A DNA stretch of 64,000 bases, taken from NCBI GenBank assembly GCA_964016885.1, contig OZ024758.1, forward strand, positions 1,612,001-1,676,000, in the 5' to 3' direction. Position 1 is the first letter of the stretch; each line of letters begins with the position of its first letter. The DNA comes from Eledone cirrhosa (taxonomy: Eukaryota). A model generated the notes under the pieces. The model did no database searches, was not told the origin of the DNA, and saw only the letters and a list, made by a program, of their open reading frames with translations. Positions 6,773-55,650 of the stretch are shown here, piece by piece. The translations under genes were made by a program, and so were the position numbers.

Positions 6773-6812
<40 letters not shown>

Positions 6813-7112
6813 CATATGTATATATATATGGACACTCTTTCCTTATCTCTTTTTCCTCTCTCTGGGCATGTGTCTCTTTCCCTATCTCTCTATTCCCATT
6901 TCTCACAGTTTTTCTTTCTCTTACCCATTACAACATACATACCATATGACGTCACACTCTGTTTACTTTCTTTTCCTCCTCTTCCTCCTCCTCTACCTCC
7001 ACCTCCTCTCTTTCTACTCCCCTCTCTCACCTAAGACCCTGTTATCTAGTATACCCTTCTTTTCTAAGACCTCATTCTCTTCAAGAATTCTCATTAGTAT
7101 TTAGCTAAAAGA

Positions 7113-7220
7113 TGGCGGCAGATTAGCAGTGTTGGTAGAGCATCGGACAACATGCGTTGGGGCATATATTTGCGGCCCTTTACGTTCAAATCCCGCCGAG
7201 GTTAGTTTTGCCTTTCATCA
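7113..7220 (+). mobile_element. tRNA-derived SINE, 5' part
   Basis: GGCGGCAGATTAGCAGTGTTGGTAGAGC ... GTTCAAATCCCGCCGAGGTTAGTTTTGCCTTTCATC. Confidence 0.75.
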
Positions 7221-7350
7221 AATCAATCAATGCGCCATTGCTATGGTGTTGCTAATTTCCATTGGAACTTTCTCATCCTGATATCTTTTACAGTTCATCT
7301 ATCTATCTATCTCTCTATCTACTTATCTATCTATCTATCCATCTATCTAT

Positions 7351-7530
7351 TTGAGGGTTGTTCTATCTATGAGGTATAAAACGACCCATTTGTAACGCCT
7401 CCCCTCTATTGGGAATTTCGATTGTTATATTTTCATGTTAACTTTTTTACACGACTGTATGTAAAATCCCCGGCATGTGTCTTTGTATTGTCCCCTTTTC
7501 TTGTGCGCCCTTGTGGCAAATAAAGAAATA
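7351..7530 (+). mobile_element. 5'-truncated Tx1 sister-family copy (3'UTR only) in a (TATC)n tract
   Basis: Highly similar to 7818-8000. Ends GTGGCAAATAAAGAAATA followed by TATC repeats, like the GTGGCAAATAAACAGAAAT end of the full-length elements. Confidence 0.85.
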
Positions 7531-7615
7531 TATCTATTTATCTATCTATCTATATATCTGTCTATCTATCTATTCATCTATCCATCCATATATCTATCTA
7601 TCTATCTATTTATCT

Positions 7616-8000
7616 AACTCATTCCCTTCTTTAGATACCACTTTAGAAGGAGAATCAGAGTGGAGAGAGAGGCACTGCACCCCAGTAAATTTACTGAAAG
7701 GTGGGTGAATGTGGCGAGAATGGCCCGAGTGATTGGGCCTTCTCTGTATATAAACCTGTAGGTTGAAGAAGAGAGCAAAAGGAAGAAAGGAGCACTTGCA
7801 CAACATGCTCCTGAAGTTGAGGGTTGTTCTATCGACGGGGTTTTAAACAACCCATTTGTGGCGCCGCCCCCTATTGGGGATTTCGATTGTTAAATTTGTT
7901 TGTTTTAATAATATTTTTACACGACTGTATGTAAAATCCCCGGCGTGTGTCTTTGTATTGTCCCCTTTTTTTGTGCACTCTTGTGGCAAATAAAGAAATA
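7616..8000 (+). mobile_element. 5'-truncated Tx1 sister-family copy (ORF2 C-terminus plus 3'UTR) in a (TATC)n tract
   Basis: 7627-7761 translates FFRYHFRRRIRVEREALHPSKFTERWVNVARMARVIGPSLYINL*, versus FFRYHFGRRIRMEREVLHSSQFYERWVKVARMARVNGPSLYLSL* in the intact ORF2. Confidence 0.92.
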
Positions 8001-8330
8001 TATCTATCTATTTATCTATCTAAATCAAAAACCATTATTATTGTCCCTCAGCTTGGGACATGCAGTCTTAGGTTAGGTCCAATGTGGTGTGACTTCTCCT
8101 CAGATTACTTATCCTATTACATTACAATGTATAACCTTCATTAGAAATATTGACGCTTTCTCTAGTTTCCTATTATATTATTCACTAATCGAGTTATCGA
8201 TTATTGATTTCATTTTTGCTTCGTTTCCATTCTTCCATTTCTATGTCTTAATAGGCAACTAAAAAGCTTAATTTTTTAATAACACTAATGACACCCAAAC
8301 GTATATATACGTGCGTAGGTGCTTGTATAT

Positions 8331-8383
<53 letters not shown>

Positions 8384-8385
<2 letters not shown>

Positions 8386-8568
8386 AACGAGTAGGACCCC
8401 GATGGCTGAGCTCAAGCCGTTTCGACGGCTAATTCCAGAATTAGCCGTCGAAACGGCTTGAGCTCAGCCGTCGGTGTCCTACTCGTTCCTATTACCCACT
8501 CTACTACCCTAAGTATTGAGTACTTTGGTGCGTTATGGTTCACCTTGTTCCTTACCACATTTCCTTCG

Positions 8569-8570
<2 letters not shown>
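8384..8570 (+). mobile_element. (TA)n-embedded fold-back hairpin element, copy 2
   Basis: About 50-bp inverted arms plus the shared tail ending CCACATTTCCTTCGTT, with (TA)n flanks. Confidence 0.85.
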
Positions 8571-8607
<37 letters not shown>

Positions 8608-8727
8608 AATGAATATATGATAGGGATAAACACTGATACGAGTATACATGTGTTTGTATTGCAAATGACCAAGTTAGCTAGATTCCTTTCTTTGAACTAT
8701 TTAATTGTAAAAGACTATTTGAGTTTA

Positions 8728-8805
<78 letters not shown>

Positions 8806-10919: not shown

Positions 10920-13259
10920 GACAGACAGGTGGACTGACAGACAGACAGGTGGACTGACAGACAGGTGGACTGACAGACAGGTGGACTGACAGACAGGTGG
11001 ACTGACAGACAGACAGGTGGACTGACAGACAGGTGGACTGACAGACAGGTGGACTGACAGACAGACAGGTGGACTGACAGACAGACAGGTGGACTGACAG
11101 ACAGACAGGTGGACTGACAGACAGGTGGACTGACAGACAGACAGGTGGACTGACAGACAGGTGGACTGACAGACAGACAGGTGGACTGACAGACAGACAG
11201 GTGGACTGACAGACAGACAGGTGGACTGACAGACAGGTGGACTGACAGACAGGTGGACTGACAGACAGGTGGACTGACAGACAGACAGGTGGACTGACAG
11301 ACAGGTGGACTGACAGACAGGTGGACTGACAGACAGACAGGTGGACTGACAGACAGACAGGTGGACTGACAGACAGACAGGTGGACTGACAGACAGGTGG
11401 ACTGACAGACAGGTGGACTGACAGACAGGTGGACTGACAGACAGACAGGTGGACTGACAGACAGGTGGACTGACAGACAGGTGGACTGACAGACAGACAG
11501 GTGGACTGACAGACAGACAGGTGGACTGACAGACAGACAGGTGGACTGACAGACAGGTGGACTGACAGACAGACAGGTGGACTGACAGACAGGTGGACTG
11601 ACAGACAGACAGGTGGACTGACAGACAGACAGGTGGACTGACAGACAGACAGGTGGACTGACAGACAGGTGGACTGACAGACAGACAGGTGGACTGACAG
11701 ACAGGTGGACTGACAGACAGACAGGTGGACTGACAGACAGACAGGTGGACTGACAGACAGACAGGTGGACTGACAGACAGGTGGACTGACAGACAGACAG
11801 GTGGACTGACAGACAGGTGGACTGACAGACAGACAGGTGGACTGACAGACAGACAGGTGGACTGACAGACAGACAGGTGGACTGACAGACAGACAGGTGG
11901 ACTGACAGACAGGTGGACTGACAGACAGATGGACTGACAGACAGGTGGAGTGACAGACAGACAGGTGGACTGACAGACAGACAGATGGACTGACAGACAG
12001 GTGGACTGACAGACAGGTGGACTGACAGACAGGTGGAGTGACAGACAGACAGGTGGACTGACAGACAGACAGATGGACTGACAGACAGGTGGACTGACAG
12101 ACAGACAGGTGGACTGACAGACAGGTGGACTGACAGACAGATGGACTGACAGACAGGTGGACTGACAGACAGATGGACTGACAGACAGGTGGACTGACAG
12201 ACAGATGGACTGACAGACAGGTGGACTGACAGACAGGTGGACTGACAGACAGACAGGTGGACTGACAGACAGGTGAACTGACAGACAGACAGATGGACTG
12301 ACAGACAGGTGGACTGACAGACAGATGGACTGACAGACAGGTGGACTGACAGACAGACAGATGGACTGACAGACAGGTGGACTGACAGACAGATGGACTG
12401 ACAGACAGGTGGACTGACAGACAGGTGGACTGACAGACAGGTGGACTGACAGACAGGTGGACTGACAGACAGACAGGTGGACTGACAGACAGACAGATGG
12501 ACTGACAGACAGACAGGTGGACTGACAGACAGGTGGACTGACAGACAGGTGAACTGACAGACAGGTGGACTGACAGACAGGTGGACTGACAGACAGACAG
12601 GTGGACTGACAGACAGACAGATGGACTGACAGACAGGTGGACTGACATACAGACAGGTGGACTGACAGACAGACAGATGGACTGACAGACAGGTGAACTG
12701 ACAGACAGACAGATGGACTGACAGACAGGTGGACTGACAGACAGATGGACTGACAGACAGGTGGACTGACAGACAGATGGACTGACAGACAGGTGGACTG
12801 ACAGACAGATGGACTGACAGACAGGTGGACTGACAGACAGGTGGACTGACAGACAGGTGGACTGACAGACAGGTGGACTGACAGACAGACAGGTGGACTG
12901 ACAGACAGACAGATGGACTGACAGACAGACAGGTGGACTGACAGACAGGTGGACTGACAGACAGGTGGACTGACAGACAGGTGGACTGACAGACAGGTGG
13001 ACTGACAGACAGACAGGTGGACTGACAGACAGACAGATGGACTGACAGACAGGTGGACTGACAGACAGACAGGTGGACTGACAGACAGACAGATGGACTG
13101 ACAGACAGGTGGACTGACAGACAGACAGGTGGACTGACAGACAGACAGATGGACTGACAGACAGGTGGACTGACAGACAGACAGGTGGACTGACAGACAG
13201 ACAGATGGACTGACAGACAGGTGGACTGACAGACAGACAGGTGGACTGACAGACAGACA
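10920..13259. repeat. GACA satellite array 1, units (GACA)2-3-GGTGGACT with increasing GATGGACT
   Basis: Mixed 16- and 20-bp units; abuts the 3' end of Tx1 copy 1. Confidence 0.98.
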
Positions 13260-13483
13260 AATTTCTGTTTATTTGCCACTAGGGCACAAAAGAAAGGGAC
13301 ATGTACATGGGTGGGGGGAGTTTACATAAAAATCGAGTAAGAAAAATATAACAAACAAAATAATAACAAGAAGGTCCTCAATAGGGAGGGATCGTTTTGG
13401 GGTCACACACACCCCCGAAAAAAAGTGTGCGACCCTTCTCCACGGGAGCACAAAGAGAGGGTGCTCCCTTCTTTCTGTTCCAC

Positions 13484-16400
13484 CTACAGGCTGAGGTAGA
13501 GAGAAGGCCCATTCACACGGGCCATTCTCGCAACTTTCACCCACCTTTCATAAAACTGGCTGGAGTGGAGCACCTCTCTCTCCATCCTGATCCTTCTTCC
13601 GAAATGGTATCGGAAGAAAAGGACCAGTTGTTGGCCGGAGAGAAAGGTGTCCGACCTCAGCCCTTTCAGACGCGTCCACCATATAGCCTCTTTTACCATG
13701 GCTATTACACAGAGGAAGACCGCCTCTCCTTCATTTTTGAAGGGGGGAGGTGGCTTGATCGTTACAATGGACTCGGTGGTCAACCTAATTGGTCCCACCC
13801 GTGACAGCAGTCGTTCGACATAGCCCCACAGATCGGCAACGCCCGGGCAGTGCACCAATGCGTGCGCGACGGTTTCCTCGTCGCGCACGCATCTGGGACA
13901 GATCTTTTTCGAGGGGTCCCTACCCGGGCGCCCGTGTCTGTAGAGCTTATCCCGAACGGGCAGAGCCCCTCGGTAGCACTGCCAGGCCAAGGACTTCTGG
14001 AAGTTGTCCATAGGTCCCGGGCCGAAAGTCCTACCGAATAGACTGGCCAGTTCGTCCTCCTCCATGCCTAGGGCTTCTCCGAGGGCGTCGTCGCACCCGC
14101 TAACCACCAGCCCTCTATAGAATGACGAGGTGGAGTCTCCGTCGATAGCCGGGTCCGCCTGCCAGAGAGCCGTGAGCGCCTGGGCACACTCGGTGTGCCA
14201 GTCGCCCAGTTTTCTCGGTCTTTGCTTCACCCAGGACTGCAGCTCGGTGAGCGAGACGAGCCTCGGGAAGGCTCGCCTCACAAACGGGGCCCACACCGGT
14301 TGACCGGTGAGGAATACGTGGAGGTGCCTTAGCCTCAATGCGTGTTTACGCATTTTTAGCCACGGCATCCCCAGCCCTCCTTTCAAAGGGTGTTGACAGC
14401 AGATGGATCTCCTCACCAGAGGAGACCTCTTCTTCCAAAGGAAATAAAAGAGGGCGCGCTCCATTTTGGCGAGGATCTCACCCGGGCAAGGCACGACAGT
14501 CAAGCGGTAATAGATGACGGACGCTATGTAAGCATTCGCCACCTCCGCCCGACCTTTTAGGGATAGTTTGCACTCGGCCCACTTCTGGGTCAGTGCAAAC
14601 ACCCTATTCGTCACCTCACCCCAGTTTTTCTCCACCTGGAGGTCCGGTCCGAACCAGACCCCAAGCAACTTCACCGGGCCCTCCGTCCACCGTCCGACGA
14701 TACCGTCGCACGACATCGCTTTGCCCCTCCACTCGCCGAGTTGCAAAGCGACTGACTTGTCCCGGTTCAGCTTAGCCCCTGTCAACCTTTCGTACTCCTC
14801 TAGTAAGGTGCCGATTGCCTCGATTTCCGAGGCGGTCGACACCATTACTGTTACGTCATCGGCGTAGGCCGACACCGCTTTGCGCAATCCCGGTTCCAAA
14901 GGGATGCCCTGCAACAACTCCAACTTCCGCAGTAATGGCTCGAGAGTCAACACATACAGAAGGGAGGAGAGAGGGCACCCCTGTCGGATGGAGCGGGTGA
15001 TTTCGAACGGCTCCGAAAGGTAGCCGTTCACCTTGACTCTAGAGCAGATGCGGCTGCTGTGCATGGCAGTGATCCAGCCCCTGAAAACGGGTCCGAACCC
15101 AGCCGCCGCTAGCACCGCATCCAGGTAACCATGGTCCACTCTATCGAACGCTTTAGACTGATCTAAATTTATCAGGGCCCCACCAAAGCCGGGTTCGTTC
15201 CCAACCCTCTCTATGATGTATCGCATGAGGTGGAGGTTGTCGTGGATGGACCTGGACGGGATAGCGCATGTCTGCGCATCTCCCACCAGTCCCCCCACGA
15301 CAAGCGCCAACCTCTTCGCTAACACCTTCGCCAAAATCTTTAACTCTGCATTTAGCAGAGTTATGGGCCTAAAATTACTAATGTCATCCCCCTTGTTCTC
15401 GTCCTTCCTCACTAGCGAGACTACGCCCTTGGTCACAGAACAGGGAATTCTCCCGTTCTGTTGCCAGTTGCAGTAGACCGCCTCGAGGAGATCGGGGAAC
15501 AAGTCCGGCATATTAATATATAGTTCGTAGGGCAGACCATCGAGTCCTGGAGATTTGCGTTTGCCGCATAGGCTCAGCACGTCCCCTATTTCAGCAGCTG
15601 AGATCGGCCCGTCGCAGGACCTCGCCTCCCTGTCCGAAAGACGCGGCAGGCCGTCGAGGTATGGACCGAAATCCACACCTCCAACCGGCTCCCCGCCCCT
15701 CCCGAACAATTGGGCAAAGTGCCTTTGAAAGGCCTCGCACATTTGCTTAGGTTCAAGGATCAGCCGTCCATCCTGGTCTCGCAAAGACCGGATAGTGGAT
15801 TTAATCCCACTTTTCGCTTCTGTCACGCGGGCCCAGCTAACAGCTTTGGTCCCCTCGTTTCCCAGAGCACGTATTTTGCTTCGGACAACGCAGCCTTCGT
15901 GTTTCGCGTCGAAGAACTGGTTCAAGACCGTTCTCGACGCTTGCACTCTGGCCACGTTGCCGCTTCTCATTGCCTCTTCAACATTAACTACCAACTCCCT
16001 TTCCTTCCTATTTCTATCTGAGGCTAACTCCTTACTAACTCCTATTGAAACTACTCTAATCTCTCTTTTTAGAGAGCCCCACCACCTGTTGTTGACGATG
16101 GCGCCCGTCAACTGCTCCTTAACTAAGGTTCTAATCCGGTCCCTGTAAGCTCTACTTGCCGGTAAGGACAAGTTGAGCTTCCAGTAACCGGGCCCCTGCC
16201 TATGCGTTCTATCAAGGTGGACTACGCAGGTCACTAACTTGTGGTCTGAATAGCCCACCATGAGCATTTCTGGACAACTTAAAAAGTCCCTATCCTTAAT
16301 TCTAACTAAGAACCTATCTAGGTACGATCTAGATTGACCACTGTTATTTGACCAGGTCCAGGTTGGTACAGTCGGAAAATCTAGTCGGTATCTATCGGCC

Positions 16401-16921
16401 AGGTCGAATCGACCGATTAACCCCTTAAGGCTGTTACACCCCCCTCTATCGGGACATGCCCCTACATAGTCCCAACGTGCATCTAGGATACCATTCCAGT
16501 CCCCCACTAAAAGCAAGGAGCGGGACGTCCCTAGAAAAGTCTCCAGACGATGGAAGAAGTCCGACCGCATTGCCCCAAAAGGGGCGTATACGGCGACAAG
16601 CCTAAAAGCTTCGCCTTCGCCATTGCCAAGGTCCAGAACCACGAGTCGACCCTCCGGGTCCAAGTGTACCGTCTGTGTAGCGAGACCCAGATGTTTTTGC
16701 AGCAGAACGACAACCCCACCCCCACCTCCGGGCTGACAGAGAGATGCGTGCATCTCAAAGTCATCAAAGGTGGGGGTTAGCTGTCGCATGCTGCTGATCC
16801 GGGCCTCGCAAATAACCATCACATTTACACATTGTGACCTGAAGTCACTTAGAAGTTTAGCTTGCTTCCAAGGTGAGCCCAGGCCACGCGCATTTAGACA
16901 ACCCACTCTTAAGACAGCCAT
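13484..16921 (-). CDS. ORF2p: AP-like endonuclease, reverse transcriptase and C-terminal CCHC zinc finger (1145 aa)
   Basis: APE motifs LNARGL, E, GDWN, LDRF and SDH; Tx1-typical GPGYWKLN; RT motifs KSPGLDG, FRPITLLN, KAFDRV, QGCPLS and YADD; CPRC-x8-H-x4-C. Confidence 0.97.
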   Translation of the reverse strand: MAVLRVGCLNARGLGSPWKQAKLLSDFRSQCVNVMVICEARISSMRQLTPTFDDFEMHASLCQPGGGGGVVVLLQKHLGLATQTVHLDPEGRLVVLDLGNGEGEAFRLVAVYAPFGAMRSDFFHRLETFLGTSRSLLLVGDWNGILDARWDYVGACPDRGGCNSLKGLIGRFDLADRYRLDFPTVPTWTWSNNSGQSRSYLDRFLVRIKDRDFLSCPEMLMVGYSDHKLVTCVVHLDRTHRQGPGYWKLNLSLPASRAYRDRIRTLVKEQLTGAIVNNRWWGSLKREIRVVSIGVSKELASDRNRKERELVVNVEEAMRSGNVARVQASRTVLNQFFDAKHEGCVVRSKIRALGNEGTKAVSWARVTEAKSGIKSTIRSLRDQDGRLILEPKQMCEAFQRHFAQLFGRGGEPVGGVDFGPYLDGLPRLSDREARSCDGPISAAEIGDVLSLCGKRKSPGLDGLPYELYINMPDLFPDLLEAVYCNWQQNGRIPCSVTKGVVSLVRKDENKGDDISNFRPITLLNAELKILAKVLAKRLALVVGGLVGDAQTCAIPSRSIHDNLHLMRYIIERVGNEPGFGGALINLDQSKAFDRVDHGYLDAVLAAAGFGPVFRGWITAMHSSRICSRVKVNGYLSEPFEITRSIRQGCPLSSLLYVLTLEPLLRKLELLQGIPLEPGLRKAVSAYADDVTVMVSTASEIEAIGTLLEEYERLTGAKLNRDKSVALQLGEWRGKAMSCDGIVGRWTEGPVKLLGVWFGPDLQVEKNWGEVTNRVFALTQKWAECKLSLKGRAEVANAYIASVIYYRLTVVPCPGEILAKMERALFYFLWKKRSPLVRRSICCQHPLKGGLGMPWLKMRKHALRLRHLHVFLTGQPVWAPFVRRAFPRLVSLTELQSWVKQRPRKLGDWHTECAQALTALWQADPAIDGDSTSSFYRGLVVSGCDDALGEALGMEEDELASLFGRTFGPGPMDNFQKSLAWQCYRGALPVRDKLYRHGRPGRDPSKKICPRCVRDEETVAHALVHCPGVADLWGYVERLLSRVGPIRLTTESIVTIKPPPPFKNEGEAVFLCVIAMVKEAIWWTRLKGLRSDTFLSGQQLVLFFRYHFGRRIRMEREVLHSSQFYERWVKVARMARVNGPSLYLSL

Positions 16922-16944
16922 GTTGGTGGCAAAGAAAGAGGCAC

Positions 16945-18702
16945 TTACCTCTCTGCGTCCCGGGGTTCGGGTCGCTCAGTTTCCATGGGGCTGGTGGCGG
17001 GGTTGACGGGTGGGGTGGTGGTTTGTGGTGGTGTGGGGGTATTGGTGTGTGGAGGGGTTGGGATCTTTGGAGTTGTGTGGGTGTTTGAGGAGGGGAGGGG
17101 AAAACCTTTCAGGAGGACGCGGTTGAGTGGCCTGGTGCAGGGTGGGCCCACGTCCTCAGGGTACATGTCTTTTAAAGTTTTAAAAATGTCAAGTGGGATT
17201 TTCACCATTTTCAGGTTAGGGAGCCCCATTGCCGTTACGAAATTCGGCCCTTCGGTTTGTATCGAAGGGTTGGTTTCTATTTTTAAAGTTAGGTTTTCAT
17301 TGTTTTTGTTTATGTATGTGTAGAGTTTTTGTGTTGTTGTGTTTGTTTTTGCTTGTTGTTGTTGAGTGAGTTTGCGTTTTATTGTCTGTGTTGTGTTGTC
17401 AGGTGGGGTTATTTTTGTTGTTGTGGTGTGTGTACGTTTTTTTCTTTTCACTTTTTGGAAGGGAGCCCCCTCGTCTTCCGACGATATGAGCTCCTCTTCC
17501 GTATTGGAGGGGAGGGGTATATCTCCGGGTTGTGTATGAACTGTTTTTGTATTTGTGTTCTGTGGGGTGGGGCTGGGTGGGACCGTGTTTTGGGTTGTTT
17601 TCTTGAGCTGTTGTTGATGTTGTTGTTGTTGTGGTGGTGGTGGTGGTGTTGTTGTTGGTTTTTGTTGTTCTGGTGGTGATGGTAGTGTATTTTGTTGTTT
17701 TTGTGATGGTGGTGCTGGTTGTTTTTGTTGTTGTTGTGGTGTTTGTAGCAGTGGTTTTTTTGTTGTTAGTAGAGGGCAGGCCGTCCTCAGGTGACCTCTG
17801 CCAGCGCAGTGGTAACATGAGGGTCTCCTGCCTTCCACTGTGATATTTATGTAGGTTCGCCCATCCAGTAGCACTCGGTCGGGTATTCCGGAGATTCTCT
17901 CAGGTGTCATCTGTAAGAGAACCTCCAGACTTTTCCCCCCGAACAGTCCACTGGTGGACTCCCCTGCTGAAATTAGTATGTCCTTATCTAGGTCGGTAAA
18001 TCCTGTTAGGACGGACCAGATGTTAATTTCTGGCGTAGGGCTCCACATTCTTATCCTTTGTGTTCTTCTTCCTTTATATGTGGGGAAGAAGGTGTATTGT
18101 GGTGACACTATAGGTGCCACCGAATATTTCTGAGCCAGCATTTCGTCCTTCATTCGGACCATAATGCTGGCATACAGCTTTCCTCTTTGAATAAAGAGTA
18201 TGTCATTTTTAATTTCTTTCAGAACCAGCTCGATTTGACTTTCGGTCAATTGCGCTGGCTTTCTCGTTTCGTTGGTTATGGTTCTGAAGCTTACGGTATT
18301 CTTGTAAATCTGTTCACGCACTTCTTCTGGGGAGTTGATCGTAAAAGAACCATCCACCCCAAAAGATACGTATTTTCTAGCCTCTAGCAAATTTTCCTTG
18401 GCGTTCGTGATGTCAATGGCTTTGTACTCCGTGGCTCTCTTGAGTGTTTGGGCAAAAGAAATTTTGTCTTTGTTTGTTGTTGTAATGTTGTTGGTTTCCT
18501 TATTTGTGGTGTTATTTTTTTCTTGAAAATTAATTTTTTCATTTGAATTGAAATTCTTTTTTTCATTGGAGAGGAGGGGTTGTTCAACAGTTTGAACTGT
18601 TGTTCCCTCTTTCCCGCTTGTTTTTTTGGTCGGCGTGGCGTTCGCTTCCAATATGGCGATATCGTTTTCGACGATATCGTTATCAACGATATCGATAAAC
18701 AT
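16945..18702 (-). CDS. ORF1p: gag-like nucleic-acid-binding protein (585 aa)
   Basis: Single CX2CX4HX4C knuckle (CYHCAGRGHLRTAC), Q/P/T-rich disordered region and basic KVKRKKR. Lies upstream of ORF2 and is intact in both copies. Confidence 0.92.
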   Translation of the reverse strand: MFIDIVDNDIVENDIAILEANATPTKKTSGKEGTTVQTVEQPLLSNEKKNFNSNEKINFQEKNNTTNKETNNITTTNKDKISFAQTLKRATEYKAIDITNAKENLLEARKYVSFGVDGSFTINSPEEVREQIYKNTVSFRTITNETRKPAQLTESQIELVLKEIKNDILFIQRGKLYASIMVRMKDEMLAQKYSVAPIVSPQYTFFPTYKGRRTQRIRMWSPTPEINIWSVLTGFTDLDKDILISAGESTSGLFGGKSLEVLLQMTPERISGIPDRVLLDGRTYINITVEGRRPSCYHCAGRGHLRTACPLLTTKKPLLQTPQQQQKQPAPPSQKQQNTLPSPPEQQKPTTTPPPPPQQQQHQQQLKKTTQNTVPPSPTPQNTNTKTVHTQPGDIPLPSNTEEELISSEDEGAPFQKVKRKKRTHTTTTKITPPDNTTQTIKRKLTQQQQAKTNTTTQKLYTYINKNNENLTLKIETNPSIQTEGPNFVTAMGLPNLKMVKIPLDIFKTLKDMYPEDVGPPCTRPLNRVLLKGFPLPSSNTHTTPKIPTPPHTNTPTPPQTTTPPVNPATSPMETERPEPRDAER

Positions 18703-18717
18703 TTCTCAAATATTTAT

Positions 18718-18741
18718 TTTTCACCCCAAAAGGGGTGAAAA
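18718..18741 (-). promoter_or_regulatory. Perfect 10-bp stem-loop in the 5'UTR, about 15 nt before the ORF1 ATG (also at 32625-32648)
   Basis: TTTTCACCCC-AAAA-GGGGTGAAAA. Function is inferred only. Confidence 0.5.
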
Positions 18742-18876
18742 TATATTTACCCGACGTCTAGAGTCCCAGACTAGGGGTTACAGTTAATTATACAAAATAA
18801 TTCAAAAAAATCCACTCACAAAATTAGCAGGTAAAAATCCAAATCACAGAGCGATATGACACACGTCTACTATCCT

Positions 18877-21800
18877 CAGACAGACAGACAGACAGACAGA
18901 TGGACTGACAGACAGATGGACTGACAGACAGATGGACTGACAGACAGGTGGACTGACAGACAGATGGACAGACAGACAGGTGGACTGACAGACAGGTGGA
19001 CAGACAGACAGGTGGACTGACAGACAGGTGGACTGACAGACAGACAGATGGACTGACAGACAGATGGACTGACAGACAGGTGGACAGACAGACAGGTGGA
19101 GTGACAGACAGGTGGACTGACAGACAGGTGGACAGACAGACAGGTGGACTGACAGACAGGTGGACTGACAGACAGGTGGACTGACAGACAGGTGGACTGA
19201 CAGACAGGTGGACAGACAGACAGGTGGACTGACAGACAGGTGGACTGACAGACAGACAGATGGACTGACAGACAGATGGACTGACAGACAGATGGACTGA
19301 CAGACAGGTGGACTGACAGACAGGTGGACTGACAGACAGACAGATGGACTGACAGACAGGTGGACTGACAGACAGACAGGTGGACTGACAGACAGGTGGA
19401 CTGACAGACAGGTGGACTGACAGACAGACAGGTGGACTGACAGACAGGTGGACTGACAGACAGACAGGTGGACTGACAGACAGACAGGTGGACTGACAGA
19501 CAGGTGGACTGACAGACAGACAGATGGACTGACAGACAGGTGGACTGACAGACAGATGGACTGACAGACAGGTGGACTGACAGACAGACAGGTGGACTGA
19601 CAGACAGGTGGACTGACAGACAGGTGGACTGACAGACAGACAGGTGGACTGACAGACAGATGGACTGACAGACAGATGGACTGACAGACAGATGGACTGA
19701 CAGACAGATGGACTGACAGACAGACAGATGGACTGACAGACAGATGGACTGACAGACAGATGGACTGACAGACAGATGGACTGACAGACAGACAGGTGGA
19801 CTGACAGACAGACAGATGGACTGACAGACAGGTGGACTGACATACAGACAGGTGGACTGACAGACAGACAGATGGACTGACAGACAGGTGGACTGACAGA
19901 CAGACAGGTGGACTGACAGACAGACAGATGGACTGACAGACAGGTGAACTGACAGACAGACAGATGGACTGACAGACAGGTGGACTGACAGACAGATGGA
20001 CTGACAGACAGGTGGACTGACAGACAGATGGACTGACAGACAGGTGGACTGACAGACAGATGGACTGACAGACAGGTGGACTGACAGACAGGTGGACTGA
20101 CAGACAGGTGGACTGACAGACAGGTGGACTGACAGACAGACAGGTGGACTGACAGACAGACAGATGGACTGACAGACAGACAGGTGGACTGACAGACAGG
20201 TGGACTGACAGACAGGTGGACTGACAGACAGGTGGACTGACAGACAGGTGGACTGACAGACAGGTGGACTGACAGACAGACAGGTGGACTGACAGACAGA
20301 CAGATGGACTGACAGACAGGTGGACTGACAGACAGACAGGTGGACTGACAGACAGACAGATGGACTGACAGACAGGTGGACTGACAGACAGACAGATGGA
20401 CTGACAGACAGGTGGACTGACAGACAGACAGATGGACTGACAGACAGGTGGACTGACAGACAGGTGGACTGACAGACAGACAGGTGGACTGACAGACAGA
20501 CAGGTGGACTGACAGACAGACAGGTGGACTGACAGACAGACAGGTGGACTGACAGACAGGTGGACTGACAGACAGACAGGTGGACTGACAGACAGGTGGA
20601 CTGACAGACAGACAGGTGGACTGACAGACAGGTGGACTGACAGACAGACAGGTGGACTGACAGACAGACAGATGGACTGACAGACAGGTGGACTGACAGA
20701 CAGGTAGACTGACAGACAGGTGGACCGACAGACAGGTGGACTGACAGACAGGTGGACTGACAGACAGACAGGTGGACTGACAGACAGACAGATGGACTGA
20801 CAGACAGGTGGACTGACAGACAGGTGGACTGACAGACAGGTGGACTGACAGACAGGTGGACTGACAGACAGGTGGACTGACAGACAGACAGGTGGACTGA
20901 CAGACAGACAGATGGACTGACAGACAGGTGGACTGACAGACAGGTGGACTGACAGACAGATGGACTGACAGACAGATGGACTGACAGACAGGTGGACTGA
21001 CAGACAGATGGACTGACAGACAGATGGACTGACAGACAGGTGGACTGACAGACAGGTGGACTGACAGACAGATGGACTGACAGACAGATGGACTGACAGA
21101 CAGGTGGACTGACAGACAGATGGACTAACAGAGAGGTGGACTGACAGACAGGTGAACTGACAGACAGATGGACTGACAGACAGATGGACTGACAGACAGG
21201 TGGACTGACAGACAGATGGACTGACAGACAGATGGACTGACAGACAGATGGACTGACAGACAGATGGACTGACAGACAGATGGACTGACAGACAGGTGGA
21301 CTGACAGACAGATGGACTGACAGACAGATGGACTGACAGACAGGTGGACTGACAGACAGATGGACTGACAGACAGATGGACTGACAGACAGATGGACTGA
21401 CAGACAGGTGGACTGACAGATTGATGGACTGACAGACATATGGACTGACAGACAGATGGACTGACAGACAGATGGACTGACAGACAGGTGGACTGACAGA
21501 CAGATGGACTGACAGACAGATGGACTGACAGACAGGTGGACTGACAGACAGATGGACTGACAGACAGATAGATTGACAGACAGGTGGACTGACAGACAGA
21601 TGGACTGACAGACAGATGGACTGACAGACAGATGGACTGACAGACAGGTGGACTGACAGACAGATGGACTGACAGACAGATGGACTGACAGACAGATGGA
21701 CTGACAGACAGATGGACTGACAGACAGGTGGACTGACAGACAGATGGACTGACAGACAGATGGACTGACAGACAGATGGACTGACAGACAGATGGACTGA

Positions 21801-24800
21801 CAGACAGGTGGACTGACAGACAGGTGGACTGACAGACAGATGGACTGACAGACAGATGGACTGACAGACAGATGGACTGACAGACAGATGGACTGACAGA
21901 CAGATGGACTGACAGACAGATGGACTGACAGACAGGTGGACTGACAGACAGATGGACTGACAGACAGGTGGACTGACAGACAGGTGGACTGACAGACAGA
22001 TGGACTGACAGACAGATGGACTGACAGACAGATGGACTGACAGACAGATGGACTGACAGACAGGTGGACTGACAGACAGACAGATGGACTGACAGACAGA
22101 CAGGTGGACTGACAGACAGGTGGACTGACAGACAGATGGACTGACAGACAGATGGACTGACAGACAGGTGGACTGACAGACAGGTGGACTGACAGACAGG
22201 TGGACTGACAGACAGGTGGACTGACAGACAGGTGGACTGACAGACAGACAGATGGACTGACAGACAGGTGGACTGACAGACAGGTGGACTGTCAGACAGG
22301 TGGCCTGACAGACAGACAGATGGACTGACAGACAGATGGACTGACAGACAGATGGACTGACAGACAGGTGGACTGACAGACAGATGGACAGACAGACAGG
22401 TGGACTGACAGACAGGTGGACAGACAGACAGGTGGACTGACAGACAGGTGGACTGACAGACAGACAGATGGACTGACAGACAGATGGACTGACAGACAGG
22501 TGGACAGACAGACAGGTGGAGTGACAGACAGGTGGACTGACAGACAGGTGGACAGACAGACAGGTGGACTGACAGACAGGTGGACTGACAGACAGGTGGA
22601 CTGACAGACAGGTGGACTGACAGACAGGTGGACAGACAGACAGGTGGACTGACAGACAGGTGGACTGACAGACAGACAGATGGACTGACAGACAGATGGA
22701 CTGACAGACAGATGGACTGACAGACAGGTGGACTGACAGACAGGTGGACTGACAGACAGACAGATGGACTGACAGACAGGTGGACTGACAGACAGACAGG
22801 TGGACTGACAGACAGGTGGACTGACAGACAGGTGGACTGACAGACAGACAGGTGGACTGACAGACAGGTGGACTGACAGACAGACAGGTGGACTGACAGA
22901 CAGACAGGTGGACTGACAGACAGGTGGACTGACAGACAGACAGATGGACTGACAGACAGGTGGACTGACAGACAGATGGACTGACAGACAGGTGGACTGA
23001 CAGACAGACAGGTGGACTGACAGACAGGTGGACTGACAGACAGGTGGACTGACAGACAGACAGGTGGACTGACAGACAGATGGACTGACAGACAGATGGA
23101 CTGACAGACAGATGGACTGACAGACAGATGGACTGACAGACAGACAGATGGACTGACAGACAGATGGACTGACAGACAGATGGACTGACAGACAGATGGA
23201 CTGACAGACAGACAGGTGGACTGACAGACAGATGGACTGACAGACAGATGGACTGACAGACAGACAGATGGACTGACAGACAGATGGACTGACAGACAGA
23301 TGGACTGACAGACAGATGGACTGACAGACAGACAGATGGACTGACATACAGATGGACTGACAGACAGATGGACTGACAGACAGATGGACTGACAGACAGA
23401 TGGACTGACAGACAGATGGGCTGACAGACAGACAGGTGGACTGACAGACAGATGGACTGACAGACAGATGGACTGACAGACAGACAGATGGACTGACAGA
23501 CAGATGGACTGACAGACAGATGGACTGACAGACAGATGGACTGACAGACAGATGGACTGACAGACAGATGGACTGACAGACAGACAGATGGACTGACAGA
23601 CAGATGGACTGACAGACAGATGGACTGACAGACAGACAGATGGACTGACAGACAGATGGACTGACAGACAGATGGACTGACAGACAGATGGACTGACAGA
23701 CAGACAGGTGGACTGACAGACAGATGGACTGACAGACAGATGGACTGACAGACAGACAGATGGACTGACAGACAGATGGACTGACAGACAGATGGACTGA
23801 CAGACAGATGGACTGACAGACAGACAGATGGACTGACAGACAGACAGATGGACTGAGAGACAGATGGACTGACAGACAGACAGATGGACTGACAGACAGA
23901 CAGATGGATTGAGAGACAGACAGATGGACTGAGAGACAGACAGATGGACTGACAGATGGACTGACAGACAGACAGATGGACTGACAGACAGACAGACAGA
24001 CATATGGACTGACAGACAAACAGACAGATGGACTGACAGACAGACAGACAGACAGATGGACTGACAGACAGACAGATGGACTGACAGACAGACAGATGGA
24101 CTGAGAGACAGATGGACTGACAGACAGACAGATGGACTGACAGACAGACATATGGACTGACAGACAGACAGATGGACTGAGAGACAGACAGATGGACTGA
24201 CAGACAGACAGATGGACTGACAGACAGACAGATGGACTGAGAGACAGACAGATGGACTGACAGACAGACAGATGGACTGACAGACAGACAGATGGACTGA
24301 CAGACAGACAGATGGACTGAGAGACAGACAGATGGACTGACAGACAGACAGATGGACTGACAGACAGATGGACTGACAGACAGACAGATGGACTGACAGA
24401 CAGATGGACTGACAGACAGACAGATGGACTGACAGACAGACAGATGGACTGACAGACAGACAGATGGACTGACAGACAGACAGATGGACTGACAGACAGA
24501 CAGATGGACTGACAGACAGATGGACTGAGAGACAGACAGATGGACTGACAGACAGACAGATGGACTGAGAGACAGACAGATGGACTGACAGACAGACAGA
24601 TGGACTGACAGACAGACAGATGGACTGACAGACAGACAGATGGACTGACAGACAGACAGATGGACTGACAGACAGACAGATGGACTGACAGACAGACAGA
24701 CAGATGGACTGACAGACAAACAGACAGATGGACTGACAGACAGACAGACAGACAGATGGACTGACAGACAGATGGACTGACAGACAGACAGATGGACTGA

Positions 24801-27166
24801 CAGACAGACAGATGGACTGAGAGACAGACAGATGGACTGACAGACAGACAGATGGACTGACAGACAGACAGATGGACTGAGAGACAGACAGATGGACTGA
24901 CAGACAGACAGATGGACTGAGAGACAGACAGATGGACTGACAGACAGACAGATGGACTGAGAGACAGACAGATGGACTGACAGACAGACAGATGGACTGA
25001 CAGACAGACAGATGGACTGAGAGACAGACAGATGGACTGACAGACAGACAGATGGACTGAGAGACAGACAGATGGACTGACAGACAGACAGATGGACTGA
25101 CAGACAGACAGATGGACTGAGAGACAGATGGACTGACAGACAGACAGATGGACTGACAGACAGACAGATGGACTGAGAGACAGACAGATGGACTAACAGA
25201 CAGACAGATGGACTGAGAGACAGACAGATTGACTGACAGACAGACAGATGGACTGACAGACAGACAGATGGACTGACAGACAGACAGATGGACTGACAGA
25301 CAGACAGATGGACTGACAGACAGACAGATGGACTGACAGACAGACAGACAGATGGACTGACAGACAAACAGACAGATGGACTGACAGACAGACAGACAGA
25401 CAGATGGACTGACAGACAGACAGATGGACTTACAGACAGACAGATGGACTGACAGACAGACAGATGGACTGACAGACAGATGGACTGACAGACAGACAGA
25501 TGGACTGACAGACAGACAGATGGACTGACAGACAGGTGGACTGACAGACAGGTAGACTGACAGACAGGTGGACCGACAGACAGGTGGACTGACAGACAGG
25601 TGGACTGACAGACAGACAGGTGGACTGACAGACAGACAGATGGACTGACAGACAGGTGGACTGACAGACAGGTGGACTGACAGACAGGTGGACTGACAGA
25701 CAGGTGGACTGACAGACAGGTGGACTGACAGACAGACAGGTGGACTGACAGACAGACAGATGGACTGACAGACAGGTGGACTGACAGACAGGTGGACTGA
25801 CAGACAGATGGACTGACAGACAGATGGACTGACAGACAGGTGGACTGACAGACAGATGGACTGACAGACAGATGGACTGACAGACAGGTGGACTGACAGA
25901 CAGGTGGACTGACAGACAGATGGACTGACAGACAGATGGACTGACAGACAGGTGGACTGACAGACAGATGGACTAACAGAGAGGTGGACTGACAGACAGG
26001 TGAACTGACAGACAGATGGACTGACAGACAGATGGACTGACAGACAGGTGGACTGACAGACAGATGGACTGACAGACAGATGGACTGACAGACAGATGGA
26101 CTGACAGACAGATGGACTGACAGACAGATGGACTGACAGACAGGTGGACTGACAGACAGATGGACTGACAGACAGATGGACTGACAGACAGGTGGACTGA
26201 CAGACAGATGGACTGAGAGACAGATGGACTGACAGACAGATGGACTGACAGACAGGTGGACTGACAGATTGATGGACTGACAGACATATGGACTGACAGA
26301 CAGATGGACTGACAGACAGATGGACTGACAGACAGGTGGACTGACAGACAGATGGACTGACAGACAGATGGACTGACAGACAGGTGGACTGACAGACAGA
26401 TGGACTGACAGACAGATAGATTGACAGACAGGTGGACTGACAGACAGATGGACTGACAGACAGATGGACTGACAGACAGATGGACTGACAGACAGGTGGA
26501 CTGACAGACAGATGGACTGACAGACAGATGGACTGACAGACAGATGGACTGACAGACAGATGGACTGACAGACAGGTGGACTGACAGACAGATGGACTGA
26601 CAGACAGATGGACTGACAGACAGATGGACTGACAGACAGATGGACTGACAGACAGGTGGACTGACAGACAGGTGGACTGACAGACAGATGGACTGACAGA
26701 CAGATGGACTGACAGACAGATGGACTGACAGACAGATGGACTGACAGACAGATGGACTGACAGACAGATGGACTGACAGACAGGTGGACTGACAGACAGA
26801 TGGACTGACAGACAGGTGGACTGACAGACAGGTGGACTGACAGACAGATGGACTGACAGACAGATGGACTGACAGACAGATGGACTGACAGACAGATGGA
26901 CTGACAGACAGGTGGACTGACAGACAGACAGATGGACTGACAGACAGACAGGTGGACTGACAGACAGGTGGACTGACAGACAGATGGACTGACAGACAGA
27001 TGGACTGACAGACAGGTGGACTGACAGACAGGTGGACTGACAGACAGGTGGACTGACAGACAGGTGGACTGACAGACAGGTGGACTGACAGACAGACAGA
27101 TGGACTGACAGACAGGTGGACTGACAGACAGGTGGACTGACAGACAGGTGGCCTGACAGACAGACA
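18877..27166. repeat. GACA satellite array 2 (8.3 kb) with kb-scale higher-order repeats
   Basis: Rare variants recur at fixed offsets: GGCCTG at 22304/27152 and the GGACTAACAGAGAG block at 21125/25973 (offset 4848); block 18996/22416 (offset 3420). Confidence 0.98.
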
Positions 27167-27390
27167 AATTTCTGTTTATTTGCCACTAGGGCACAAAAGA
27201 AAGGGACATGTACATGGGTGGGGGGAGTTTACATAAAAATCGAGTAAGAAAAATATAACAAACAAAATAATAACAAGAAGGTCCTCAATAGGGAGGGATC
27301 GTTTTGGGGTCACACACACCCCCGAAAAAAAGTGTGCGACCCTTCTCCACGGGAGCACAAAGAGAGGGTGCTCCCTTCTTTCTGTTCCAC

Positions 27391-30300
27391 CTACAGGCTG
27401 AGGTAGAGAGAAGGCCCATTCACACGGGCCATTCTCGCAACTTTCACCCACCTTTCATAAAACTGGCTGGAGTGGAGCACCTCTCTCTCCATCCTGATCC
27501 TTCTTCCGAAATGGTATCGGAAGAAAAGGACCAGTTGTTGGCCGGAGAGAAAGGTGTCCGACCTCAGCCCTTTCAGACGCGTCCACCATATAGCCTCTTT
27601 TACCATGGCTATTACACAGAGGAAGACCGCCTCTCCTTCATTTTTGAAGGGGGGAGGTGGCTTGATCGTTACAATGGACTCGGTGGTCAACCTAATTGGT
27701 CCCACCCGTGACAGCAGTCGTTCGACATAGCCCCACAGATCGGCAACGCCCGGGCAGTGCACCAATGCGTGCGCGACGGTTTCCTCGTCGCGCACGCATC
27801 TGGGACAGATCTTTTTCGAGGGGTCCCTACCCGGGCGCCCGTGTCTGTAGAGCTTATCCCGAACGGGCAGAGCCCCTCGGTAGCACTGCCAGGCCAAGGA
27901 CTTCTGGAAGTTGTCCATAGGTCCCGGGCCGAAAGTCCTACCGAATAGACTGGCCAGTTCGTCCTCCTCCATGCCTAGGGCTTCTCCGAGGGCGTCGTCG
28001 CACCCGCTAACCACCAGCCCTCTATAGAATGACGAGGTGGAGTCTCCGTCGATAGCCGGGTCCGCCTGCCAGAGAGCCGTGAGCGCCTGGGCACACTCGG
28101 TGTGCCAGTCGCCCAGTTTTCTCGGTCTTTGCTTCACCCAGGACTGCAGCTCGGTGAGCGAGACGAGCCTCGGGAAGGCTCGCCTCACAAACGGGGCCCA
28201 CACCGGTTGACCGGTGAGGAATACGTGGAGGTGCCTTAGCCTCAATGCGTGTTTACGCATTTTTAGCCACGGCATCCCCAGCCCTCCTTTCAAAGGGTGT
28301 TGACAGCAGATGGATCTCCTCACCAGAGGAGACCTCTTCTTCCAAAGGAAATAAAAGAGGGCGCGCTCCATTTTGGCGAGGATCTCACCCGGGCAAGGCA
28401 CGACAGTCAAGCGGTAATAGATGACGGACGCTATGTAAGCATTCGCCACCTCCGCCCGACCTTTTAGGGATAGTTTGCACTCGGCCCACTTCTGGGTCAG
28501 TGCAAACACCCTATTCGTCACCTCACCCCAGTTTTTCTCCACCTGGAGGTCCGGTCCGAACCAGACCCCAAGCAACTTCACCGGGCCCTCCGTCCACCGT
28601 CCGACGATACCGTCGCACGACATCGCTTTGCCCCTCCACTCGCCGAGTTGCAAAGCGACTGACTTGTCCCGGTTCAGCTTAGCCCCTGTCAACCTTTCGT
28701 ACTCCTCTAGTAAGGTGCCGATTGCCTCGATTTCCGAGGCGGTCGACACCATTACTGTTACGTCATCGGCGTAGGCCGACACCGCTTTGCGCAATCCCGG
28801 TTCCAAAGGGATGCCCTGCAACAACTCCAACTTCCGCAGTAATGGCTCGAGAGTCAACACATACAGAAGGGAGGAGAGAGGGCACCCCTGTCGGATGGAG
28901 CGGGTGATTTCGAACGGCTCCGAAAGGTAGCCGTTCACCTTGACTCTAGAGCAGATGCGGCTGCTGTGCATGGCAGTGATCCAGCCCCTGAAAACGGGTC
29001 CGAACCCAGCCGCCGCTAGCACCGCATCCAGGTAACCATGGTCCACTCTATCGAACGCTTTAGACTGATCTAAATTTATCAGGGCCCCACCAAAGCCGGG
29101 TTCGTTCCCAACCCTCTCTATGATGTATCGCATGAGGTGGAGGTTGTCGTGGATGGACCTGGACGGGATAGCGCATGTCTGCGCATCTCCCACCAGTCCC
29201 CCCACGACAAGCGCCAACCTCTTCGCTAACACCTTCGCCAAAATCTTTAACTCTGCATTTAGCAGAGTTATGGGCCTAAAATTACTAATGTCATCCCCCT
29301 TGTTCTCGTCCTTCCTCACTAGCGAGACTACGCCCTTGGTCACAGAACAGGGAATTCTCCCGTTCTGTTGCCAGTTGCAGTAGACCGCCTCGAGGAGATC
29401 GGGGAACAAGTCCGGCATATTAATATATAGTTCGTAGGGCAGACCATCGAGTCCTGGAGATTTGCGTTTGCCGCATAGGCTCAGCACGTCCCCTATTTCA
29501 GCAGCTGAGATCGGCCCGTCGCAGGACCTCGCCTCCCTGTCCGAAAGACGCGGCAGGCCGTCGAGGTATGGACCGAAATCCACATTTCCAACCGGCTCCC
29601 CGCCCCTCCCGAACAATTCGGCAAAGTGCCTTTGAAAGGCCTCGCACATTTGCTTAGGTTCAAGGATCAGCCGTCCATCCTGGTCTCGCAAAGACCGGAT
29701 AGTGGATTTAATCCCACTTTTCGCTTCTGTCACGCGGGCCCAGCTAACAGCTTTGGTCCCCTCGTTTCCCAGAGCACGTATTTTGCTTCGGACAACGCAG
29801 CCTTCGTGTTTCGCGTCGAAGAACTGGTTCAAGACCGTTCTCGACGCTTGCACTCTGGCCACGTTGCCGCTTCTCATTGCCTCTTCAACATTAACTACCA
29901 ACTCCCTTTCCTTCCTATTTCTATCTGAGGCTAACTCCTTACTAACTCCTATTGAAACTACTCTAATCTCTCTTTTTAGAGAGCCCCACCACCTGTTGTT
30001 GACGATGGCGCCCGTCAACTGCTCCTTAACTAAGGTTCTAATCCGGTCCCTGTAAGCTCTACTTGCCGGTAAGGACAAGTTGAGCTTCCAGTAACCGGGC
30101 CCCTGCCTATGCGTTCTATCAAGGTGGACTACGCAGGTCACTAACTTGTGGTCTGAATAGCCCACCATGAGCATTTCTGGACAACTTAAAAAGTCCCTAT
30201 CCTTAATTCTAACTAAGAACCTATCTAGGTACGATCTAGATTGACCACTGTTATTTGACCAGGTCCAGGTTGGTACAGTCGGAAAATCTAGTCGGTATCT

Positions 30301-30828
30301 ATCGGCCAGGTCGAATCGGCCGATTAACCCCTTAAGGCTGTTACACCCCCCTCTATCGGGACATGCCCCTACATAGTCCCAACGTGCATCTAGGATACCA
30401 TTCCAGTCCCCCACTAAAAGCAAGGAGCGGGACGTCCCTAGAAAAGTCTCCAGACGATGGAAGAAGTCCGACCGCATTGCCCCAAAAGGGGCGTATACGG
30501 CGACAAGCCTAAAAGCTTCGCCTTCGCCATTGCCAAGGTCCAGAACCACGAGTCGACCCTCCGGGTCCAAGTGTACCGTCTGTGTAGCGAGACCCAGATG
30601 TTTTTGCAGCAGAACGACAACCCCACCCCCACCTCCGGGCTGACAGAGAGATGCGTGCATCTCAAAGTCATCAAAGGTGGGGGTTAGCTGTCGCATGCTG
30701 CTGATCCGGGCCTCGCAAATAACCATCACATTTACACATTGTGACCTGAGGTCACTTAGAAGTTTAGCTTGCTTCCAAGGTGAGCCCAGGCCACGCGCAT
30801 TTAGACAACCCACTCTTAAGACAGCCAT
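27391..30828 (-). CDS. ORF2p (APE-RT-zinc finger), copy 2, 1145 aa
   Basis: Same motifs as copy 1. Differs at SD(F/L)R, FA(Q/E)L and VG(G/N)V. Confidence 0.97.
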   Translation of the reverse strand: MAVLRVGCLNARGLGSPWKQAKLLSDLRSQCVNVMVICEARISSMRQLTPTFDDFEMHASLCQPGGGGGVVVLLQKHLGLATQTVHLDPEGRLVVLDLGNGEGEAFRLVAVYAPFGAMRSDFFHRLETFLGTSRSLLLVGDWNGILDARWDYVGACPDRGGCNSLKGLIGRFDLADRYRLDFPTVPTWTWSNNSGQSRSYLDRFLVRIKDRDFLSCPEMLMVGYSDHKLVTCVVHLDRTHRQGPGYWKLNLSLPASRAYRDRIRTLVKEQLTGAIVNNRWWGSLKREIRVVSIGVSKELASDRNRKERELVVNVEEAMRSGNVARVQASRTVLNQFFDAKHEGCVVRSKIRALGNEGTKAVSWARVTEAKSGIKSTIRSLRDQDGRLILEPKQMCEAFQRHFAELFGRGGEPVGNVDFGPYLDGLPRLSDREARSCDGPISAAEIGDVLSLCGKRKSPGLDGLPYELYINMPDLFPDLLEAVYCNWQQNGRIPCSVTKGVVSLVRKDENKGDDISNFRPITLLNAELKILAKVLAKRLALVVGGLVGDAQTCAIPSRSIHDNLHLMRYIIERVGNEPGFGGALINLDQSKAFDRVDHGYLDAVLAAAGFGPVFRGWITAMHSSRICSRVKVNGYLSEPFEITRSIRQGCPLSSLLYVLTLEPLLRKLELLQGIPLEPGLRKAVSAYADDVTVMVSTASEIEAIGTLLEEYERLTGAKLNRDKSVALQLGEWRGKAMSCDGIVGRWTEGPVKLLGVWFGPDLQVEKNWGEVTNRVFALTQKWAECKLSLKGRAEVANAYIASVIYYRLTVVPCPGEILAKMERALFYFLWKKRSPLVRRSICCQHPLKGGLGMPWLKMRKHALRLRHLHVFLTGQPVWAPFVRRAFPRLVSLTELQSWVKQRPRKLGDWHTECAQALTALWQADPAIDGDSTSSFYRGLVVSGCDDALGEALGMEEDELASLFGRTFGPGPMDNFQKSLAWQCYRGALPVRDKLYRHGRPGRDPSKKICPRCVRDEETVAHALVHCPGVADLWGYVERLLSRVGPIRLTTESIVTIKPPPPFKNEGEAVFLCVIAMVKEAIWWTRLKGLRSDTFLSGQQLVLFFRYHFGRRIRMEREVLHSSQFYERWVKVARMARVNGPSLYLSL

Positions 30829-30851
30829 GTTGGTGGCAAAGAAAGAGGCAC

Positions 30852-32609: not shown

Positions 32610-32783
32610 TTCTCAAATATTTATTTTTCACCCCAAAAGGGGTGAAAATATATTTACCCGACGTCTAGAGTCCCAGACTAGGGGTTACAGTTAATTATAC
32701 AAAATAATTCAAAAAAATCCACTCACAAAATTAGCAGGTAAAAATCCAAATCACAGAGCGATATGACACACGTCTACTATCCT

Positions 32784-35700: not shown

Positions 35701-36116
35701 TGACAGACAGACAGATGGACTGACAGACAGACAGATGGACTGACAGACAGACAGATGGACTGACAGACAGACAGATGGACTGACAGACAGACAGATGGAC
35801 TGACAGACAGACAGACAGATGGACTGACAGACAAACAGACAGATGGACTGACAGACAGACAGACAGACAGATGGACTGACAGACAGACAGATGGACTTAC
35901 AGACAGACAGATGGACTGACAGACAGACAGATGGACTGACAGACAGATGGACTGACAGACAGACAGATGGACTGACAGACAGACAGATGGACTGAGAGAC
36001 AGACAGATGGACTGACAGACAGACAGATGGACTGACAGACAGACAGATGGACTGACAGACAGACAGATGGACTGAGAGACAGACAGATGGACTGACAGAC
36101 AGATGGACTGACAGAG
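32784..36116. repeat. GACA satellite array 3, ending in mostly 20-bp GA(C/G)A-GACA-GACA-GATGGACT units
   Basis: About 32790-35950 is a near copy of about 22310-25480 (shared CATACA, GGGCTG, GGATTGAG, ACAAAC and GGACTTAC variants). Confidence 0.98.
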
Positions 36117-36179
36117 AGATAAAAAGGGAGAACGGGGGATCAATAGAGAGAAAGATGAATAAGAGGTCATCTAAAATAG

Positions 36180-43655: not shown

Positions 43656-43713
<58 letters not shown>

Positions 43714-43750
43714 CTTTATTTAATTTTCTATCAATCTATCTATTTATGTA

Positions 43751-54533: not shown

Positions 54534-54582
<49 letters not shown>

Positions 54583-55619: not shown

Positions 55620-55650
<31 letters not shown>

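Follow-up and report, generated by a model that had tools for sequence, protein, structure and literature searches.

Two 5'-truncated copies of one LINE family were found stacked in a single (TATC)n tract of Eledone cirrhosa. The locus is probably the outcome of endonuclease-guided TPRT into existing TATC tracts, in which synthesis stops early, some 18 bp of target are duplicated, and the tract is used again. The copies lie in a window of 64,000 nucleotides, which is the whole stretch of DNA analyzed here. Between positions 7297 and 8022, the order is TATC tract, copy 1, TATC tract, copy 2, and TATC tract (Table 1). The initial annotation had described two truncated copies of differing length with TATC repeats on both sides of each, and both copies were located where it had placed them, between three TATC tracts. 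The limits given for copy 1 stand, and copy 2 may begin at either 7616 or 7617 (one ambiguous A).

Table 1. Positions in the window of the stacked copies, the two full-length elements, and their surrounding repeats.
Feature	Positions	Strand	Details
TATC tract 1, 5' of copy 1	7297..7350	+	13.5 units; variants TCTC, TACT, CATC
Copy 1, 180-nt 5'-truncated LINE	7351..7530	+	Comprises 3' UTR alone; 3' end AATAAA-GAAATA, no poly(A)
TATC tract 2, between the copies	7531..7616	+	21.5 units; variants in 8 of 21 whole units, one of them TGTC
Upstream repeat of the 18-bp target-site duplication flanking copy 2	7599..7616	+	Identical to 8001-8018; holds a TATT variant
Copy 2, 384-nt 5'-truncated LINE	7617..8000	+	End of ORF2 and 3' UTR
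Final 47 ORF2 codons and stop, copy 2	7618..7761	+	35/47 aa identical to the end of the big ORF2
TATC tract 3	8001..8022	+	8001-8018 is the downstream repeat of the duplication
Compound satellite 3' of A	10920..13259	-	(TGTC)2-3 AGTC CA(C/T)C
Full-length LINE A	13260..18876	-	ORF1 18702-16945 (zinc-knuckle motif); ORF2 16921-13484 (APE, RT, CCHC); ends AATAAA-CAGAAATT, then TGTC
Compound satellite between B and A	18877..27166	-	Variant patterns repeated internally
Full-length LINE B	27167..32783	-	Duplicate of A: 6 substitutions, 5' flank identical over 935 nt
Compound satellite 5' of B	32784..36120	-	3.3 kb of satellite

Both copies end in GTGGCAAATAAAGAAATA followed by TATCTAT, as had been claimed. 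In the alignment of copy 1 with positions 7817-8000 of copy 2, 159 of 185 columns are identical (86%), which assigns both copies to one LINE family. The polarity is also as annotated: TATC stands on the sense strand of the copies, and TGTC on the sense strand of the big minus-strand elements A and B. Outside the locus, only one TATC-type run of three units was found in the whole window in any phase or strand (58526-58537), so the setting of the copies is not background, and the stacked arrangement is real rather than a chance one. Short-read contigs match positions 7040-7202 and 7993-8300 with zero differences, although the matching runs may come from the assembly's own sample and no listed contig covers the entire locus. 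The second of these matches confirms the 3' junction of copy 2. Read depth over the copies is thousands-fold that of the unique flanks, a ratio not usable as a copy number.

The immediate surroundings contain other repeats. Just upstream of tract 1, at 7109-7220, lies the degraded remnant of a very abundant repeat, which has the top read depth and may resemble tRNA-derived octopus SINEs. Right after tract 3, positions 8020-8042 have raised depth and are joined to this SINE-like repeat in other contigs; thus, this sequence is itself a low-copy repeat. All Rfam matches over 6600-8800 fell under the gathering score and were taken as chance, as was a 13-nt match at 43709-43721.

The C-terminus of ORF2 reported for the longer copy was recovered at 7618-7758. 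The encoded peptide shares 74% of its 47 residues with the last 47 of the big ORF2, and its stop is at the same place (tblastn E 8e-16). The 3' UTR of the big elements matches those of copies 1 and 2 at 71-73%. The proposed relatedness to the big elements was borne out as well: when the copy-2 peptide was compared with 447 collected proteins and the big ORF2, the latter was the closest, and the next-best protein matched at 31 of 47 residues. The two group in a tree at support 84/81, on 47 columns only, so that 'sister' may be a fair label for the TATC family in this thin sample. No full-length ORF2 or APE of the TATC family was found among the 447 proteins, and a search with the 47-aa peptide found no longer matching proteins. 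The short copies are without APE and RT and are tied to the big element through their C-terminal homology.

In the big ORF2 (1145 aa), an APE endonuclease and an RT are followed by a CCHC finger at the C-terminus. Its Exo_endo_phos (E 1.6e-6) and RVT_1 (E 1.3e-26) domains are above the cut-off; zf-RVT (E 1.2e-5) falls just under it, and CxxC-x8-H-x4-C is visible in the translation. Among solved structures, the best match is human L1 ORF2p (E 5e-50, residues 7-858), followed by R2 proteins at E 4e-18 or weaker, in a comparison whose 10 matches represent only the L1 and R2 clades. With its APE and RT, L1 as nearest structure, the CCHC finger, and an upstream ORF1, the big element belongs to the L1 group of APE-type non-LTR retrotransposons. 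ORF1 encodes 585 aa and has a single CX2CX4HX4C motif, whose zf-CCHC match (E 0.067) does not reach the cut-off. An ORF1 with a zinc knuckle is a feature of the Tx1 clade. The Tx1 label is a putative one that fits the anatomy of the elements, on which it rests, the protein searches having returned and the tree containing no labelled Tx1 reference.

The nearest named relatives of the big ORF2 are Argonauta hians proteins (GAB1606090.1, GAB1601854.1, and GAB1599396.1; 59-63% identical), which are annotated only as hypothetical proteins, and a cuttlefish protein (47%). In a quick version of the whole-ORF2 tree, the big ORF2 and three such proteins, GAB1606090.1 among them, form a fully supported clade of four rows. 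Viral and bacterial contigs yielded no relatives of the big ORF2, metagenome contigs had 0 matches to the 21-base motif of the 3' end, and a protein atlas search returned only generic RT/endonuclease clusters. An alignment scan gave 71 loci, none with TATC or TGTC runs of at least 4 units, and these loci are too distant to bear on targeting. Folding of four 3' UTR segments gave z values from -0.43 to -2.91, with no structure established as common to both families. Loose read ends were found at 7695 and 7731-7746, where related sequences from two organisms keep the conserved ORF2 end and differ on both sides of it. The loose ends at 7695 and 7746 demonstrate further related LINE families in the same organism.

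The question of whether the repeat at the 3' end is target or tail is addressed by copy 2. Positions 7599-7616 and 8001-8018 are exactly the same, forming an 18-bp duplication around the copy with the TATT variant in register. When whole units were shuffled in 200,000 trials, a repeat of at least 18 bp arose in 0.9-1.1% and one of any length in 4.0-5.8%, in a test designed after the repeat had been seen. At position 8012, where copy 2 has T, a C is carried by 2379 of 2704 reads in X21 (a further sample from this organism), by 117,066 of 127,907 summed depth in X18 (92%), and by 8832 of 8975 in X1, a second organism (98%), with the reservation that clipping may cut reads with a different 3' flank short of this position. 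Because the duplication bears the variant and most of the family has C at 8012, the repeat 3' of copy 2 most plausibly represents duplicated host DNA and not a tail of the family. For copy 1, the duplication is either a 7-nt pure repeat or 19 nt with 2 mismatches and is not diagnostic; neither is that of the big element. Copies 1 and 2 share their 3' end and differ in their 5' ends, which are marks of TPRT. Poly(A) is absent at three distinct 3' junctions, with AATAAA 6-8 nt before the end. The ends read AATAAA-GAAATA and then TATC in the copies, and AATAAA-CAGAAATT and then TGTC in the big element, the repeat restarting in the same phase after GAAAT(A/T) in both families.

Reads contain further insertions of the family. 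Among the 12 of 82 junction rows listed, TATC is joined directly to an internal position of the family in at least 5, and these rows hold four distinct junctions, at 7657, at 7688, at 7799, and, within a variant 3' UTR, near 7930-7960. Together with the two in the window, six truncation points have TATC upstream. In two of the read junctions, only 10-11 tract letters precede the joint; we infer that these are probably stacked copies too, and that stacking therefore recurs. Two of the extra read-derived 5' flanks hold TGTC units. TATC flanks accompany 2/2 copies in the window and most 3' ends that reach 8012, counts that are biased towards the examined stretch. A junction row requires both of its sides to lie within this stretch, so TGTC-flanked or unique-flanked 5' ends cannot appear; from the 12 of 82 junctions and 24 of 1274 loose ends listed, no on-target fraction is derivable. 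X18 and X19 are one sample, perhaps the source of the assembly; runs X2-X17, with small word shares, were left out of the read comparison, and tracts 1 and 2 were skipped in it, so that an empty site could not show. One multi-copy contig joins 7804 to 8001, leaving the family 43 nt after the stop and entering TATC after 12 other letters; it represents either a short-tailed variant or an internal deletion. The suggestion that TATC is a real target is thus backed by the 18-bp duplication with its diagnostic variant and by the extra 5' junctions.

With nicking, TPRT, and the choice of site by the endonuclease taken from LINE biology, these observations may be arranged as follows. The family would consist of high-copy APE-type, L1-group (Tx1-like) non-LTR retrotransposons preferring (TATC)n. 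The endonuclease would nick the GATA strand of an existing tract, and the RT would prime from the nick, often halting early and leaving a 5'-truncated copy. A second nick about 18 bp off would duplicate the site. With the repeat persisting on both sides, the tract would stay a target and gather more copies, and copies 1 and 2 would be separate hits on one old tract. The related family, present in TGTC-rich satellite with the same polarity and phase, would probably prefer TGTC.

Several other accounts, not all of them mutually exclusive, have to be weighed against such targeted insertion. Elements inserting without any target might carry their own repeat tails, as RTE-type LINEs do, with the 5' tract being a tail remnant. 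TATC does follow the 3' end family-wide, and a microsatellite 3' end was reported for an octopus RTE (PMC9115989), but the variant-bearing duplication at copy 2, the TATC upstream of six different truncation points, and the 3.3 kb of satellite that precede the full-length element on its 5' side make a tails-only reading disfavoured and highly improbable. The repeat might also act through RNA. The UAUC or UGUC end of a read-through transcript would anneal to the nicked strand, the target being inherited from the founder site and the endonuclease little changed. Other LINEs are known to prime through terminal repeats, and both the lack of poly(A) at three distinct 3' ends despite their AATAAA and the common phase in which the repeat starts would suit such pairing. 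However, the TATT variant of the site appears at unit 3 of the repeat 3' of copy 2, which leaves no more than two units that could come from RNA; the hairpin loop of the endonuclease varies among octopod-type sister proteins, as diverging enzymes predict; and the target is mainly determined by the endonuclease according to Kojima (2015; PMC4494074). Pairing as the setter of the target is accordingly rather unlikely.

It is likewise conceivable, if somewhat unlikely, that specificity is relaxed, with both families taking T(A/G)TC or TNTC and the contrast between TATC and TGTC due to sampling. The TGTC side amounts to one event, TGTC units are present in tract 2 and in the two read-derived 5' flanks, and the families are close, at 35/47 aa. 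Additionally, a Tx1L hairpin loop grafted onto the L1 endonuclease altered nicking only partly (PMC1950540), and one-base specificity is therefore not a given. On the other side, the unit beside the 5' ends of the TATC family is TATC-like in the junctions seen, and most 3' ends reaching 8012 run on as TATC in two organisms, albeit in biased counts. Furthermore, the big element adjoins pure (TGTC)5, a class that holds only 25 of 453 TGTC units.

Under the preferred reading, copies 1 and 2 are separate insertions, as the initial annotation had proposed. Besides indels, 20 of 179 aligned bases distinguish the copies. At 11 sites, 75% or more of the X18 depth disagrees with one of the copies; its partner agrees with the majority at 9 of these, has a gap at 1, and shows the same departure at 1. 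These sites were drawn, over the shared stretch, from 40 differences listed (310 more were not), with two rows below 75% omitted. Since only 1 of 11 departures is common to the copies, the insertions are probably independent, and 9 of the 11 listed departures being private to one copy agrees with the annotated claim. Such a pattern is expected of two insertions, made in either order, that decayed separately. The competing account, in which unequal exchange within the tract made a second local copy of one insertion and copy 1 later lost its 5' part, is improbable. A duplication of this kind did befall the big element, and one departure is common to both copies, at 7895/7430. This shared departure lies in a poorly aligned part, though, and it stands against the 9 private ones. 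Moreover, plain tandem copying of the 3' part would place the short copy downstream and not upstream. A duplication soon after insertion would still be compatible with the differences.

The TGTC side of the comparison depends on elements A and B. These show 6 differences over about 5,600 bases; in the 5' flanks, they agree fully over 935 nt and at 3053 of 3140 aligned positions. Given the 6 differences and the identical flank pattern, A and B represent a single insertion that was copied along with a 13.9-kb unit, either in the genome or in the assembly, and the reading as two separate insertions is rejected. The surrounding sequence had been described as a GACA array; TGTC units are present, but as part of a compound satellite and not of a plain microsatellite. 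About 14 kb of this satellite occupies 10920-36120, where long variant patterns recur within and between arrays; the pattern could be due to unequal exchange or to an assembly effect. The 5' junction of the big element adjoins a pure (TGTC)5 run, a class to which 25 of the 453 TGTC units in the 5' array belong, a hint that it is pure TGTC that counts, or that insertion itself added units. Both ORF1 and ORF2 are open in A (13260-18876) and B (27167-32783), and, judging from these open frames, the family of the big element may have been recently active.

A partitioning of TATC and TGTC between paralogous families had also been proposed. Support for it is weak, as its TGTC half depends on one event in the 13.9-kb duplicated unit, and a single insertion cannot establish the specificity of a family. 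The further proposal of a switch from GACA to GATA found no support in its direction, since no outgroup target was recovered. The hairpin loop corresponding to the L1 beta-B6/beta-B5 loop differs among octopod-type proteins, a variation that would fit diversified targets without demonstrating them. It is possible, although doubtful, that octopod genomes harbor a recent radiation of LINE families with about 60-75% ORF2 identity that divide TATC and TGTC among themselves. If so, this division would extend a T-N-T-C series that includes TCTC (Kibi) and TTTC (crocodilians), and would provide a natural panel in which the endonuclease loop and the RNA repeat end could be compared as setters of one-base specificity. 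Such families might also help to shape microsatellite-rich octopod genomes.

The strategy itself is known, both for Tx1 families diverging onto different microsatellites and for tandem stacking (PMC4494074). In the survey of Kojima (2015), Tx1 families were considered target-specific when the target repeat was present in >20% of flanks; Kibi was assigned to (TC)n, Koshi to (TTC)n, and crocodilian Tx1 to (TTCC)n or (TTTC)n (PMC4494074). The crocodilian families Tx1-1_Crp, Tx1-5_Crp, Tx1-6_Crp, Tx1-1_Gav, and Tx1-2/3/5/8_AMi likewise represent several related APE-type families per genome on differing tetranucleotides (PMC4494074), although their units are TTCC and TTTC instead of TATC and TGTC, and the host lineage differs. 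The teleost Kibi and Koshi are also related Tx1 families that diverged in microsatellite unit (Kojima and Fujiwara 2004, cited in PMC4494074 and PMC3812793); their di- and trinucleotide units are purely pyrimidine, whereas the units found here have a purine at position 2. TATC and TGTC are not among the targets listed for the Kibi/Koshi branch in that survey (PMC4494074). Purine-containing microsatellites are used by the APE-type elements Waldo, (ACAY)n, which tolerates a two-base ambiguity, and Mino, (AC)n (PMC3812793); however, both belong to the R1 clade, and the ORF2 described here is nearest to human L1 among solved structures. Dong is also among the microsatellite cases of the same source (PMC3812793). 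Tandem stacking at one site by sequential insertion was described for SINEU-3 and Utopia, which target not a microsatellite but a Mariner transposon and U2 snRNA genes (PMC4494074; PMC4640811).

In cephalopods, the 2026 annotation of Octopus vulgaris includes 13 recently active L1-Tx1 families (PMC13282606). In the literature, no report was found of TATC- or TGTC-targeting Tx1 elements or of Tx1 targets in cephalopods; Repbase and Dfam, which were outside this search, may list such elements. As it stands, what is new here is the cephalopod lineage and two candidate target units for a known strategy. Microsatellite recognition by APE-type LINEs has been described as poorly understood (PMC3812793), and it could be tested by domain swaps between close paralogues whose targets differ in a single base, given that one paralogue has kept both ORFs open.

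The window also contains repeats of other kinds. In (TA)n tracts at 893-1065, 8384-8490, 54408-54580, and 55062-55207 lies a dispersed element, about 100-170 nt in length, that contains a long palindrome. Several of its copies are near-identical, and it is possibly a TA-targeting MITE. Minisatellites were found at 2-645, 38789-39477, 43983-45230, 45498-45854, and 55572-55986, with units of 42, 35, 29, 23/43, and 33 nt, respectively.
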